Virus record (IMG/VR): IMGVR_UViG_3300022723_000207
Span: 64,001-128,000 of that record
Length of the DNA stretch: 64,000 nucleotides
Reading direction: 5' to 3' (one strand)
Source: a virus
The notes under the pieces are model-generated. The model was not told where the DNA came from, searched no databases, and saw only the letters and a list, made by a program, of their open reading frames with translations. This document shows, in pieces, positions 43,001 to 63,545 of the stretch. The position numbers were made by a program, and so were the translations under genes. Position 1 is the stretch's first letter. Every line of letters starts with the position of its first letter.

Positions 43001-43508
43001 AGTTTTTGGTATTGGTCTTCCTCGCACTGGTACGGCTAGTTTATGCGAAGCTTTGGTGATATTGGGATACCATGCTAGGCATTATCCTAAATATGCTGAT
43101 AGAGCTAAGCGATTTGATGCTTTGGTTGATACCCCTATATGTAATTGTTTTGAAAACCTGGATAAGGAATATCCGGGGTCTAAATTTATACTCACGATGC
43201 GTAATCCGCTTAAGTGGCTTAAATCGTGTGAAAATGCTTCAAAAAGATTCAAATGGCATAATCTCAAACCTGATGGAAGATGTGGTCCTGAAGTATATCA
43301 GGCTCACATTGACTTGTTTGGCACTACTGCATATGATCAGAATGGATTCTTAGAAGGGTATTTTAAACATACTAAAAGAGTACTTGAATATTTTATGGCC
43401 AGAGAAGATTGGTTGATTTATGAAGTTAGCGAGGGGTGGGCACCTATTTGTGAATTTTTGGGCAAGCCGATACCTAAAGAGCCATTTCCTCATCGCAATA
43501 AGAGCTAG
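42990..43508 (+). CDS. Sulfotransferase-family protein
   Basis: GIGLPRTGT.SL..AL, KFILT.R...W..S, GW.P.CEFL, FPH.N. Confidence 0.8.
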   Translation: MVSKVFGIGLPRTGTASLCEALVILGYHARHYPKYADRAKRFDALVDTPICNCFENLDKEYPGSKFILTMRNPLKWLKSCENASKRFKWHNLKPDGRCGPEVYQAHIDLFGTTAYDQNGFLEGYFKHTKRVLEYFMAREDWLIYEVSEGWAPICEFLGKPIPKEPFPHRNKS

Positions 43509-44503: not shown

Positions 44504-44860
44504 ATGAAAACGATAGTAGCTGGATCAAGGTATATTACAGATCCAGCGTTTGTAATTGATGCTGTTGATAAGTCTGATTTTGAGATAACAGAAGTTGTTA
44601 GCGGCGGTCAGCGTGGTGTTGATAAACTTGGAGAAGATTACGCTGAAGCAGCTGGCTTGCCTTTAAAGGTGTTTGAGGCAGATTGGAATAAATATGGTGA
44701 TTCTGCTGGACCTATTCGTAATGGGCAAATGGCGGAATATGCTGACGCAGCCATAATCGTATGGGATGGCAAGAGTCGAGGATCTAAAGATATGATGTTG
44801 AAAGCTTACAAAAATGGCCTTAAAGTGTACGTTTATAATATCGGTGAGCCAAATATATAA
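44504..44860 (+). CDS. SLOG-superfamily protein (YspA/DUF2493-like)
   Basis: IVAGSR, VSGG.RGVD.LGE, AGPIRN..MA, WDGKSRGS..M. Confidence 0.8.
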   Translation: MKTIVAGSRYITDPAFVIDAVDKSDFEITEVVSGGQRGVDKLGEDYAEAAGLPLKVFEADWNKYGDSAGPIRNGQMAEYADAAIIVWDGKSRGSKDMMLKAYKNGLKVYVYNIGEPNI

Positions 44861-44863
44861 TGT

Positions 44864-45751
44864 ATGAATTTTATCAACCAAATTGAAGATGTATTTTCTG
44901 AGTCTCCTATTGATCCAGTGAGGCCTGCCCTTGATCCTGTTATGTTCGATGAGGATGAAGAACTAAAACCAGAGATAATGGAATTCCTCAAGAAAATTGT
45001 CGATGATATTGATAAGAATGTGGTTCCTGTAATTGGAAAGTCCTTAATTAAGGGGTCTATTCTCAGTTATCAATGGTTGCCTCATACCGATGTTGATTTG
45101 TTGGTTGAAATTGATGAGAATATTAATGATCATCAATGGGATGTTATTGGTGATCAAATTGAAGAACGTTATGATGGTTTATTCATTCCCGGCACCAAAC
45201 ACCCTTTGCAGGTGTTCGCAAAGCGTGGCAAGTACGATATAGCTGATGCTGATGGTGTTTACGATCTCTATAGGGGTTGGGTTAAAGGTCCGTATTCACA
45301 TAAAGTAGATGTTCAGAAGTATATGGACGAATTCAGAGATGTAGTTCAAAACATGGATTTAACTGCTGGGGAATTGAGAAGAGATTTAATTGATTATGAT
45401 ATATTAAATGATCTTGGCGAAGATGAAATAAAAGGGTTAAAGGCTCAATTACGTGCCAAATTGGATGAAATTGATCAAGGTGTGGACAGTCTGTTATTTC
45501 AACGTCAAGCGGTCAAGGATGCAAGGCGCGATGCTTTTGATAGGGATATGACTCTCGATGAAATTAAAGAGTTTGGGTCTAAGAACCTATTGCCAGCTAA
45601 TGTGATTCAAAAAATGTTAGAGCGTTATCACTATATGAATATCTTATCTAAGATGAAGAAAATTAAAGATGATGACGATAAGTTAGACGACGATGATATT
45701 GAAGAACTTAATGATATTTTCAATATCGAGGGCTTAAATTATGAAGCTTGA
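44864..45751 (+). CDS. Pol-beta-type nucleotidyltransferase
   Basis: KGSILSYQW...TDVDL; GVYDL. Confidence 0.6.
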   Translation: MNFINQIEDVFSESPIDPVRPALDPVMFDEDEELKPEIMEFLKKIVDDIDKNVVPVIGKSLIKGSILSYQWLPHTDVDLLVEIDENINDHQWDVIGDQIEERYDGLFIPGTKHPLQVFAKRGKYDIADADGVYDLYRGWVKGPYSHKVDVQKYMDEFRDVVQNMDLTAGELRRDLIDYDILNDLGEDEIKGLKAQLRAKLDEIDQGVDSLLFQRQAVKDARRDAFDRDMTLDEIKEFGSKNLLPANVIQKMLERYHYMNILSKMKKIKDDDDKLDDDDIEELNDIFNIEGLNYEA

Positions 45752-46256
45752 TATGATTAATGAAGATTTTGATTATGACAATCTAGCTAAGGATAAATGG
45801 CAAGAGCTTCTTAAAGAATTAATGGATATTGATGGATTTAGCTTCGATCTTGAGAATGATTATGATGTAAGCAAGGATAGATTGATAACTGTTCATGAAG
45901 ATGAAGATTCTGAGCTAAAAGATCAAGCCCGTTGCCAAATGTTTGAGGCAGGCGGCGATTGGCAAGAACCTACTTGCTACTTCCGTTGTCAAGCGGTTAA
46001 TGGACGATTCTATTGTTCTTGTACTGATCGACTGATTTCGCCGCATGATGGCGGTGGCATGTTTTGTTTGATTCCCCCGAAAGATGGTGGTAATTATCAT
46101 TTAGTTGAAACAGAGGATGGGAGGTTTGTGCCTGCGGACGCGGATGGCACCAAGGATCGTGATGAGAGAATGACTTATAATGAAAAAGATTGTTGGGAAT
46201 GGTTAAAAGATATGTTGGATAACATGAGAAAAGATGCTATGGAAGAAATGAAATGA
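45741..46256 (+). CDS. Acidic hypothetical protein
   Basis: ORF; N-terminus MKLDMINE. Confidence 0.45.
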   Translation: MKLDMINEDFDYDNLAKDKWQELLKELMDIDGFSFDLENDYDVSKDRLITVHEDEDSELKDQARCQMFEAGGDWQEPTCYFRCQAVNGRFYCSCTDRLISPHDGGGMFCLIPPKDGGNYHLVETEDGRFVPADADGTKDRDERMTYNEKDCWEWLKDMLDNMRKDAMEEMK

Positions 46257-46564
46257 ACGACAATTATCCGCGTGCCGCAGAAAATGCACCAGAAGAAGTT
46301 AAAAGTCTAGTCGATGCTATTTTGGTTGGCGGGCTACCGGACGATCTGCCTTTATTGTATGCCATATTGGGAAGCGGTACTCCTCCCTATAAGATGAGTC
46401 GGGAGGACTCTGAATATCAGAGTGAACCTAGTGGTAATCAGATGTGCGCTAATTGTGAATATGCTTACAAAAAAGTCGTCAGAGATCGTTATATCTGTTC
46501 TCAAATTCGTGGGCCTATTGAACTAGACGGTTGGTGTAGGCTTTGGGTTCCGCCCATTAAATAG
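46253..46564 (+). CDS. HiPIP-like iron-sulfur domain protein
   Basis: YQ..P.G.QMCANC.Y...C..I.GPI...GWC.LW. Confidence 0.65.
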   Translation: MNDNYPRAAENAPEEVKSLVDAILVGGLPDDLPLLYAILGSGTPPYKMSREDSEYQSEPSGNQMCANCEYAYKKVVRDRYICSQIRGPIELDGWCRLWVPPIK

Positions 46565-47021
46565 GAATACAATGAAGTTTAGAACCGTTTATGGCATCCT
46601 TCCAGTTTTAATCTTTTATCCTGATATAAAAGATGCTCATTGGACCGCCAAGCAAAATGGACCGTTTATTAGAATTCGTGAGTTTAAGGGTGATGAAGGT
46701 GTGGCCAGACATGAAATGACGACTTTTATAGATTCAACAGAAGATCCAGACGATCCTTATGTAGACGAAAGTGGCTACAACGAATGGATTGATCGTCTTG
46801 GGGTTGAACCAATTGCCAGTACAGCGAGTGGCGATGCGGACGGTTACGAAGTTTATGTTAGAGTACTAGAGCCATTGCCACCAGAAGCCGAGGTATATAG
46901 ATCTAGTGTTATAGATGGAATTGGTGTGGATAAAGATAGCCACTTTGATATGATGATGGATGAGTTTGGTGAATGGCCGTGATAGATAATTTACGATTCT
47001 TTGCGGACTGTTAGAAATGAC

Positions 47022-47050
47022 TTGACAATTCGGAACGATTCCGATAAAAT
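47022..47050 (+). promoter_or_regulatory. Sigma70 promoter with a palindromic spacer
   Basis: TTGACA-N17-TAAAAT; spacer contains TCGGAA-N3-TTCCGA. Confidence 0.75.
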
Positions 47051-47061
47051 ATAGGGCAGAC

Positions 47062-47184
47062 ATGAACTCACACCCATTACTTATGGAAGCCACGATGGCG
47101 ACAGCAGAACAAGCAGTCGAGCGATTCGACGTGTTTGGATGGGACTGCGGTATTAAGACCGATCCAGACCCAGGTGGCACCTAA
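47062..47184 (+). CDS. 40-aa leader peptide of a putative attenuator
   Basis: MNSHPLLMEATMATAEQAVERFDVFGWDCGIKTDPDPGGT, between a promoter and a terminator. Confidence 0.6.
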   Translation: MNSHPLLMEATMATAEQAVERFDVFGWDCGIKTDPDPGGT

Positions 47185-47210
47185 GAGTTCAGTATAATCA
47201 AGAACCTCTT

Positions 47211-47252
47211 AAGAGCCCCTGGGAACTAAAAAGCCCAGGGGCTCTTGCTTTT
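47211..47252 (+). terminator. Attenuator terminator upstream of the tRNA cluster
   Basis: 13-bp stem AAGAGCCCCTGGG/CCCAGGGGCTCTT followed by GCTTTT. Confidence 0.75.
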
Positions 47253-47291
47253 GGTACCCTTTGACAATTTTATAGATGTGGATTAACACTT

Positions 47292-47369
47292 GGCCCTTTA
47301 GCTCAGACGGTCTAGAGCACTTGCTTGTCACGCAAGAGGTCGCGGGTTCGATCCCCGCAAGGGTCGCCA
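47292..47369 (+). tRNA. tRNA-Asp(GTC)
   Basis: Cloverleaf, CCA. Confidence 0.93.
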
Positions 47370-47403
47370 AACTAAGTCCCCCACTTCGGTGGGGGACTTT
47401 TAT

Positions 47404-47475
47404 GCTCCCATGGTCTAGTGGTTATGACGACAGATTTTCAATCTGTAAACAGGAGTTCAATTCTCCTTGGGAGTA
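47404..47475 (+). tRNA. tRNA-Glu(TTC)
   Basis: Cloverleaf, no encoded CCA. Confidence 0.9.
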
Positions 47476-47484
47476 CTAGAATAT

Positions 47485-47570
47485 GCACCGACCCTCGCTA
47501 AAGAGGGAAGTCTCCTAGGGTTCGCGGCCTATAATGGGGGCTTCGGGTGGGGTAGAACCATCTCGGTGCT
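47485..47570 (+). ncRNA. tRNA-shaped ncRNA with an aberrant anticodon arm and T loop
   Basis: GCACCGA/TCGGTGC closing stem, three internal arms. Confidence 0.45.
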
Positions 47571-47574
47571 CTAT

Positions 47575-47649
47575 GCAGATATGGTGATAATGGTAGCACG
47601 TCGCCTTGCCAAGGCGAGGGCGCGGGTTCGATTCCCGCTATCTGCTCCA
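47575..47649 (+). tRNA. tRNA-Gly(GCC)
   Basis: Cloverleaf, CCA. Confidence 0.92.
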
Positions 47650-52286: not shown

Positions 52287-52414
52287 AACATAATACACTG
52301 GTTCCTTGACAACTCCGGGGGCAGCCTGTTACAGGTCCCGGTTTTCCACCGCCAGTGTTGTGCCGCTAAGCGAGAAGGAATATGCGGCGTCGTCGGATGG
52401 GGTAAATATAATAT

Positions 52415-62026: not shown

Positions 62027-63500
62027 TGAATAGTTTGTATCTTTTGCGATCCAGTTAGGGGCATGGGGATCCGGATCATCATAAACATGTCTGCCAACTA
62101 AAGGCATTTCGTTTAAATGTTTTAATTTCATGTAGTATATTTGTTCAAATATGCTGGAGAATAACCATGTCCCAAGAAAACATTACGTAAACGCCTAAAA
62201 AAGCACAAGAAAAAGAATCGCTGGCAAATATACTCAATGAAATTGAGCAGGCTTAATGAAGGATGGCAAGATGATTATGACCCAGAGGCTTGGAAAGGTG
62301 GTTATGATCCAGAAGGTGGTGAAGGTGATGATAGTGGTGACAGCAGTAGAATTTGGGACCTTTTAAAAGATGTTATAGGTGATACCAATATAGATCCTGA
62401 ATATTATCTGATTAGAACTGGAGATAATGAATGGATAACCACTCCATTTAATTCTGAAATATGGGTGATGAGAAAACCAAGAGATAACGAAATAGCTAAA
62501 TTTAATTTATCTTCATTTTTAAATTCAGAAATCAAAATGTCTCCGATATCGCTTGTTATAGATCCAGATCCAGATGTGTGGGATGTGGAGTGGGTTGATG
62601 GATGGAAAATTAATAAAAATATATTATTAGGCATGGAGATTGCTGACCCTGGTTTATTAGGCGGCGGTTGATAAAATATACCTTACGTTGCCCATAACGG
62701 GCTTCTCTTTGACAATCGAAAGGAGGAGGAACCATGAGTACCATGGAACGTAAGTCGCCACGTATAGGTGATACTGTCATTTACCATGACAAGCACGGGA
62801 AAGCGCACAATGCGTTAGTGAAGATTTCCTGGGATCAGGGTGGTCAGATCGAAGACCCTTGCGTTAATTTGGTATATGTCAGTGATGACGCAAAAAGGGA
62901 AGATGGCGCAGGCCGTCAGACCATTGTAGAAACTAGCATAGTTCATGGATCAAACCAGACTGCGCACGGTTTTTACTGGAGAAGGGTTGATGAAGATCCT
63001 AATCCATACGTTAAGCCTAGTGACGACTAATTAATTGACGGACGACGGATGGAACCTACAAAGGGAACCTACCCAGAGTTTATCAAATGTAGTTTAGAGG
63101 ACGCCATGCCATTAGATAACGAAGAATTTGATAATGCTTTGAATGGTATAAGTAATAGAAGCAGCAATAATGAAAAAATATTTGTTTTAACATGGCAAGA
63201 GTTGGGTGGAACAAATGCTGCTACTATTTCGGCAGATCCTGATGATCCAGATTCTGTTATCATAGCAAAGGCTACTAAAGATTTCGGGTATACTCCAGCC
63301 CCCGATGAATTTGAATATGAAATCATTGACAGTAATCATGACTCTGATACAAAACGTGGATATGCGATAACACAAGATTCTCGTGGTCACAAGTCAATTG
63401 ATATTTGGCGATCACTAGACGATGAAGAGCCAAATTGGCCGCATAATACGTTGAAACGTTTCCTTAGAAGGAAGATGTTTAACTAGTTCTTTGACAATAT

Positions 63501-63545
63501 GGGGGCGACATGGCTTCGACAGGCTGTGGAACCTAGTGTGAGCGA
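63501..63545 (+). pseudogene. tmRNA 5' end fragment, interrupted
   Basis: GGGGGCGACATGGCTTCGAC resembles the ssrA 5' end; followed by duplicated DNA. Confidence 0.55.

Follow-up and report, generated by a model that had tools for sequence, protein, structure and literature searches.

The locus described here lies in a 64,000-nucleotide window, the whole stretch of DNA that was analysed, which corresponds to bases 64001-128000 of a 153-kb IMG/VR virus contig (G000) with an estimated completeness of 42%; positions below are those of the window unless marked G000. Judged by its gp23-like capsid protein, the source appears to be a giant uncultured T4-like phage. The top match of this protein among cultured or deposited phages is that of an uncultured 595-kb phage at 40% identity, and its identity to T4-like cyanophages is ~30%, while related capsid proteins (70-94% identity) occur on 168 IMG/VR contigs among which are complete genomes of 320-395 kb. 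Dispersed between small genes across ~25 kb of the contig are 24 tRNA genes and a tmRNA, and one of these tRNA groups is preceded by a promoter, a short open reading frame (ORF) and a terminator. The features of this unit, hereafter the Asp unit, and of the genes behind it are as follows.

47012-47017, plus strand: TTAGAA upstream element of the promoter class TAGAA-N3-4-CTTGACA
47022-47050, plus strand: sigma-70-type promoter, TTGACA (47022-47027), 17-bp spacer and TAAAAT (47045-47050), 11 of 12 consensus positions
47062-47184, plus strand: 40-codon leader ORF (MNSHPLLM...DPDPGGT), no clear Shine-Dalgarno (SD) sequence
47089-47143, plus strand: region 1, putative anti-antiterminator, in which GCCAC (47089-47093) and TGGG (47140-47143) hold region 2 in the predicted leader-only fold
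47169-47178, plus strand: region 2, putative antiterminator 5' strand CCCAGGTGGC, codons 36-39, ending 4 nt before the stop codon
47182-47211, plus strand: small intervening hairpin (TAAGAGTTC / GAACCTCTTA), starting with the stop codon and closing the antiterminator junction
47210-47247, plus strand: intrinsic terminator, 14-bp stem, 10-nt loop, -26.9 kcal/mol, followed by CTTTTGG; 5' arm, region 3; 3' arm, region 4
47251-47269, plus strand: conserved box TTGGTACC-CTTTGACAAT, 3' of the terminator and common to a second unit of the contig
47292-47649, plus strand: tRNA-Asp(GTC), tRNA-Glu(TTC) and tRNA-Gly(GCC) with structured spacers, the candidate regulated genes
47374-47399: terminator-like hairpin between tRNA-Asp and tRNA-Glu, 11-bp GC-rich stem, UUCG loop, -20.9 kcal/mol, tail TTTTAT

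Promoter, leader ORF and downstream tRNA genes

The near-consensus sigma-70 promoter noted in the initial annotation is present at 47022, and is both the top match within 42-58 kb and one of only three plus-strand sequences in the 153-kb contig to match 11 of 12 consensus positions. Its -10 element is overlapped by AAAATATA (47046-47053), a sequence similar to the late-promoter motif of the phage, and from the position of this element transcription would start near 47057-47058. Promoters of the TAGAA-N3-4-CTTGACA class, with -10 forms (G)ATAAAA(A)T or TATAGT, occur three times (at 43506, 47012 and 68295, the last being G000 132295), against a chance expectation of ~0.4 matches per strand; a fourth sequence, at G000 11880, fits more loosely, without the C that precedes TTGACA. 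The copy at 43506 directly drives a non-coding Y-RNA-like/tRNA array, with neither ORF nor terminator. Since all three copies lie ahead of a stable-RNA cluster, the class would serve stable-RNA genes, with a mini-ORF and terminator interposed in two of the three cases. A search between the terminator and tRNA-Asp found no promoter-like site, leaving the tRNAs without a promoter of their own.

The leader ORF begins 11 nt past the -10 element and ~4 nt past the inferred transcript start, so that the mRNA would be nearly leaderless. As the initial annotation had it, the ORF at 47062-47184 has 40 codons and uses 19 of the 20 amino acids, with no Tyr. An open frame of 40 codons is by itself unremarkable, and the amino-acid diversity of the leader is only mildly unusual, being reached in 4% of random proteome windows (p 0.04) and in 5 of 80 other ORFs of 38-42 codons. 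The codon-usage score is coding-like, above that of 94% of spurious ORFs of 35-60 codons, with negative scores in the other two frames. On the opposite strand, an ORF at 46866-47180 was treated as spurious because its codon score is about 0. SD-like tetramers are present in only about a third of the long ORFs of this phage, and across the whole contig the heptamer AAATATA of the late-promoter motif (AAATATA-N4-ATG) stands exactly 4 nt before an ATG 16 times, compared with 0-4 times for other spacings from 1 to 10 nt. SD-less or leaderless starts thus seem to be common in this phage, and translation of the leader ORF, itself SD-less, is plausible. Its start codon is buried in the predicted folds of both the full-length RNA and the leader alone. 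The encoded peptide is an orphan in a word-indexed protein search, which returned the query alone; a full HMMER scan gave only summed weak matches to repeat proteins, which we judged to be artefacts, and a comparison with Pfam gave no match.

Codons read by tRNA-Asp, tRNA-Glu and tRNA-Gly make up 10 of 39 in the leader, compared with a background of ~19% (18.7%), and are not enriched (p ~0.18), so that a codon-matched sensor for these three amino acids is unsupported. The C-terminal half of the leader taken alone gives p 0.03 for the same codons, but this is a post hoc test; moreover, four of the ten are among the final seven codons of the leader, and a ribosome stalled there would promote termination.

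Beyond the three tRNA genes, further tRNA-like RNAs follow to about 47950. The hairpin at 47374-47399 means that tRNA-Asp is bracketed by two strong hairpins, the other being the terminator at 47210-47247, and since tRNA genes follow it, strong hairpins within the array need not block downstream expression; they may serve processing here, or simply be leaky. Between tRNA-Glu and tRNA-Gly, the 98-nt spacer at 47477-47574 has a predicted fold of -41.4 kcal/mol with a long-range closing stem. Rfam gave no match for it, and it is perhaps a further small, structured RNA.

The CTTTGACAAT part of the box 3' of the terminator has five copies on the plus strand (window 47260, 62708 and 63490; G000 128091 and 132467) and none on the minus strand, each lying 2-31 nt upstream of a mature tRNA or tmRNA 5' end or before an SD and ATG; a related copy is found at 52305. 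These copies are too near the RNA or ORF starts to be the -35 of a promoter for those genes. As a promoter of the tRNAs, the TTGACA box at 47261 was ruled out on spacing, because the start would fall inside tRNA-Asp, and only TAACAC, no usable -10, is found 17 bp past it. In five related phages the TTTGACAAT box was not enriched. The CTTTGACAAT box may serve RNA processing, bind a protein or mark a recombination joint. Two of its copies lie within an exact 59-nt duplication (63485-63543 and G000 128086-128144), each repeat spanning the box plus 45 nt from the start of the tmRNA gene. Small ORFs fill the ~600 bp that separate the repeats, and the arrangement suggests an insertion into, or a partial duplication of, the tmRNA 5' end.

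Alternative folds of the leader transcript

The terminator, described in the initial annotation with a 13-bp stem, has a stem of 14 bp; it is the strongest plus-strand hairpin ahead of a T run in the 153-kb contig, and it ends 44 nt upstream of tRNA-Asp. The antiterminator pairing proposed alongside it, between 47169-47178 and 47215-47223 across the hairpin at 47182-47211, emerged as the minimum-energy structure predicted for the nascent RNA extended to 47224-47233, and inclusion of the terminator 3' arm flips the predicted fold from antiterminator to terminator. The local antiterminator structure (47165-47226) has a predicted energy of -24.7 kcal/mol, near that of the terminator, while the duplex itself accounts for -18.2 to -18.8 kcal/mol, a range that reflects slightly different arm definitions in two runs. 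A duplex of this energy was matched by 2% of dinucleotide shuffles of the 154-nt leader in one run and by 0.6% in the second (p 0.006-0.02), whereas nine other strong terminators of the genome, taken as a control, gave p values of 0.07-0.998, with few arm bases paired upstream. The energy gain of the nascent fold alone was not significant (p 0.16). The stop codon lies 26 nt from the terminator arm, and by our own arithmetic the chance that the first in-frame stop falls where a terminating ribosome covers the antiterminator strand is ~0.06.

In the predicted leader-only fold (-45.7 kcal/mol, z -3.1; z -5.3 with the terminator included), the antiterminator strand is held by region 1, and the estimated barrier to refolding from this structure to the antiterminator is ~12.6 kcal/mol, such that refolding would probably be slow on the time scale of transcription. 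At equilibrium the antiterminator is still predicted to form without a ribosome, and the attenuator model therefore depends on kinetics. We also placed a ribosome footprint codon by codon along the leader and recomputed the pairing probabilities. The predicted antiterminator pairing was 0.95-1.0 for A-site codons 1-32, fell to 0.77 at codon 33 and 0.35 at codon 34, and was 0 from codon 35 to the stop. These predictions follow the logic put forward in the initial annotation, in which a ribosome at the stop codon masks the antiterminator and a lagging ribosome frees it. The covariance models of Rfam 15, run over 47022-47290, matched the tRNAs alone, with no match to the leader at E values up to 1.

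A paralogous unit and the search for related loci

A promoter scan of the contig led to a second unit at G000 132295-132484, before tRNA-Gln(CTG), tRNA-Gln(TTG) and tRNA-His. Common to both units are TTAGAA-N4-CTTGACA, an ATGAAC ORF start 8-11 nt past the -10 element, a GAGCCCC...GGGGCTC terminator and, after it, the box TTGGTA-NN-CT(N)TTTGACAAT; the interiors of the two units do not align. The leader of the second unit is MNTFQQHQHQTGTKSA, 16 codons with a QQHQHQ run whose six Gln and His codons are exactly those read by the three tRNAs downstream. The probability of such a run by chance is ~2e-7, and the phage proteome contains no Q/H run of at least five residues. In the predicted nascent fold, CTTAGGCTT, which contains the stop codon, pairs with the upper terminator arm and loop; this pairing has p 0.03 with the loop included and is not significant with the arm alone (p 0.84). 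Footprint masking predicts a switch at codons 13-14, with the Gln/His run inside the permissive zone, and the stop codon lies 29 nt from the terminator arm. Both units thus have their stop codon at the antiterminator strand, although the strands themselves differ in sequence.

We regard this paralogous unit, as read from its sequence and predicted folds, as the strongest new evidence for attenuator geometry. The Asp unit is the weaker of the two and the Gln/His unit the cleaner; the latter has a 16-codon leader that matches its tRNAs, the former 40 codons without a significant tRNA match. Given that Asp, Glu and Gly codons are not enriched, the Asp leader is not a codon-matched sensor of the kind that its sister would be. 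No comparable unit of promoter, leader and terminator precedes the remaining tRNA groups of the contig.

Searches for orthologues of the Asp unit were negative at several levels. A blastn search of the locus against 50,697 phage records returned tRNA matches alone; exact and degenerate patterns in IMG/VR (terminator plus box, tRNA-Asp, promoter plus ATGAAC) gave three matches, all unrelated promoters; and two metagenome scans, as well as the use of neighbouring proteins as anchors for an orthologous locus, yielded nothing. The leader DNA was absent from all 10 capsid-related IMG/VR records searched, out of 168. The layout that the initial annotation proposed to look for before other phage tRNA arrays did not appear in two complete relatives (~76% capsid identity), where a crude hairpin scan found no terminator-type hairpin before any tRNA group, and the device is accordingly lineage-specific at best. 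The paralogue, with the same architecture in different sequences, is the only comparison locus found for the ORF and the pairing.

The tRNA region of this lineage is highly plastic. Three complete IMG/VR relatives (L011/G002, L014/G003 and L041/G005; 320-395 kb with direct terminal repeats, capsid identity 73-76%) carry 39, 38 and 1 tRNA genes, respectively, and none of the genes of the window's tRNA region was found in them. A 136-aa protein encoded upstream of the leader unit (ORF 46572-46982) shares its first 50 residues, at 98% and 80% identity, with two metagenome proteins; these go on with a HEMTH metalloprotease-like motif, whereas the window protein is wholly different after residue 50. 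A recombination breakpoint is thus indicated near 46722, shortly before the leader unit.

A proposed transcription attenuator and alternative explanations

Leader-peptide attenuators are well known from the amino-acid operons of enterobacteria (trpL, hisL, thrL, ilvL and pheL). In common with these, the Asp unit has a promoter, a short leader ORF, an intrinsic terminator and a mutually exclusive antiterminator that would use the terminator 5' arm; an upstream segment of the leader may hold the antiterminator strand, as in the predicted leader-only fold, and the stop codon is placed such that a terminating ribosome would mask it. The Asp unit differs in that the candidate regulated genes are tRNAs and other RNAs rather than enzymes, in that it has no run or enrichment of control codons, and in its long (40 codons), nearly leaderless leader. 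On its sequence and predicted folds it would fit the classical attenuators in every structural feature but control-codon enrichment.

The closest match to a logic of general translation stress is found elsewhere. Dar and colleagues reportedly described in 2016, using Term-seq, attenuators of antibiotic-resistance genes whose leaders sense ribosome stalling, such as those of vmlR, lmo0919 and bmrCD. In leaders of this type a stall anywhere in the ORF, whichever the codon, flips a terminator/antiterminator pair. Drugs are the signal for these leaders, which regulate resistance proteins in Firmicutes, whereas the Asp unit belongs to a phage, stands before tRNA genes and has no identified stalling motif. 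A functional likeness can also be drawn to the trn operon of Anabaena, a silent tRNA array on a megaplasmid that is induced under translational stress and for which promoter repression has been proposed (PMC8421152). There too, extra tRNA genes are off until translation is impaired; the array is on a cellular megaplasmid with a proposed repressor rather than in a phage, and the words attenuation, leader and terminator are all absent from the text of that paper.

Our preferred reading, which we hold with moderate confidence and as an even call, is that the Asp unit is a ribosome-dependent (leader-peptide) transcription attenuator gating tRNA-Asp, tRNA-Glu, tRNA-Gly and the structured RNAs behind them. 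Host RNA polymerase would initiate at the 47022 promoter, giving a nearly leaderless mRNA, and a ribosome would translate the 40-codon ORF as the polymerase advances. A ribosome that is already near codon 34 or at the stop when the terminator 5' arm emerges would cover CCCAGGTGGC, so that the 14-bp terminator forms and transcription ends. If instead it lags within codons 1-33, the leader's own fold would be melted and 47169-47178 left free to pair with the terminator 5' arm, allowing the polymerase to read through. With no ribosome, the leader's own fold would probably trap region 2 and lead to termination, as in trp. The predicted logic is thus trp-like, with termination when the ribosome is absent or fast and read-through when it lags; translation of the ORF, coupling of ribosome and polymerase, and the signal sensed are what we infer.

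Of the interpretation given in the initial annotation, the attenuator geometry has held up, both in the predicted folds and in the paralogue, whereas its proposal that the leader reports general translation stress or any cleaved tRNA drew no direct support: the leader is only slightly more diverse in amino acids than usual, shows no codon bias towards the downstream tRNAs and encodes an orphan peptide. Lacking such bias, the leader, if it works, would track the overall progress of ribosomes and not one tRNA, as the initial annotation proposed; the absence of bias is the one feature of the sequence that would fit a sensor of general translation stress. Taken together with the sister unit, this raises the tentative and rather unlikely idea of a two-tier, translation-sensing control of tRNA supply, with a codon-specific tier, represented by the QQHQHQ leader, and a codon-agnostic tier, represented by the leader with 40 codons and 19 amino acids. 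In the latter, any slowing of ribosomes, be it from tRNA depletion, anticodon nucleases or general shutdown, would open tRNA-Asp, tRNA-Glu, tRNA-Gly and the tRNA-like RNAs.

The alternative that fares best, though we consider it unlikely, is that of a constitutive, leaky terminator or insulator, which would end both the upstream operon (44504-46982) and a short transcript from the 47022 promoter and let a fixed fraction of read-through reach the tRNAs, the ORF and the alternative pairing having no sensing role. Indeed, the upstream operon lacks a terminator of its own, none being present from the stop of the upstream ORF (46982) to the promoter, and the T-tailed hairpin with tRNAs beyond it, the non-significant gain in nascent-fold energy and the expression of tRNA groups in relatives without such units all agree with this account. 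It leaves unexplained, however, why the antiterminator duplex is an outlier among 11 genome terminators and why two paralogous units both place an ATG at the transcript start and a stop at the antiterminator strand; the QQHQHQ leader of the paralogue, in particular, is hard to explain without translation.

A second alternative takes the 40-aa peptide as the product of a free-standing small ORFan gene within a cassette resembling the PeSLs of T4-type phages. PeSLs are composite stem-loop and sigma-70-like promoter motifs that flank ORFans (PMC4122927), and such terminator/promoter cassettes are described as joints for recombination and regulation rather than switches that sense translation (PMC4122927, PMC2839356). 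The likeness is that a T4-like phage (gp23-type capsid) here has a stem-loop followed by a TTGACA element beside a small orphan ORF in a variable region, and that ORF was predicted by the gene caller and has coding-like codon usage. PeSLs are thus a real rival for the outer frame of the unit, yet the Asp unit falls outside their definition as cassettes with a complete -35/-10 promoter at many joints, since TAACAC stands at the -10 position of its second element and the composite occurs only twice in 153 kb, both times directly before tRNAs. A start directed by the box would fall inside a tRNA, the peptide has no homologue or Pfam domain, and the sister ORF has only 16 codons, six of them for Gln or His. 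We consider a PeSL-like gene improbable.

The chances are slimmer still that the product of the locus is a small, structured RNA (47058-47250, ~190 nt) functioning as such, with the ORF incidental. The unusually strong structure of the leader, with or without its terminator, would be expected of such an RNA, as would the buried start codon, and the promoter class otherwise drives non-coding RNAs; but the frame-specific, coding-like codon usage and the lack of an Rfam match argue against it, and the quite different interior of the sister unit means that no RNA body is conserved. Least probable of all is factor-dependent control, in which a phage or host protein on TTAGAA or the TTGGTA..TTTGACAAT box would set terminator use by infection time, given that no factor was identified, that the box lies downstream of the terminator and that the ORFs and pairings would go unexplained, even though what the two units conserve lies outside the interior of the leader and the box is enriched on the plus strand ahead of stable-RNA genes.

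Our literature searches found no description of leader-peptide attenuation for phage tRNA genes. If the attenuator reading is correct, this mode of control, known for amino-acid, synthetase and resistance genes, would be extended to viral tRNA genes, and the Asp unit would represent a compact natural sensor of translation. Phages would then meter their tRNA supply through a direct reading of ribosome speed, which would bear on the question of why phages carry tRNAs, whether for codon compensation or for escape from tRNA-cleaving defences.
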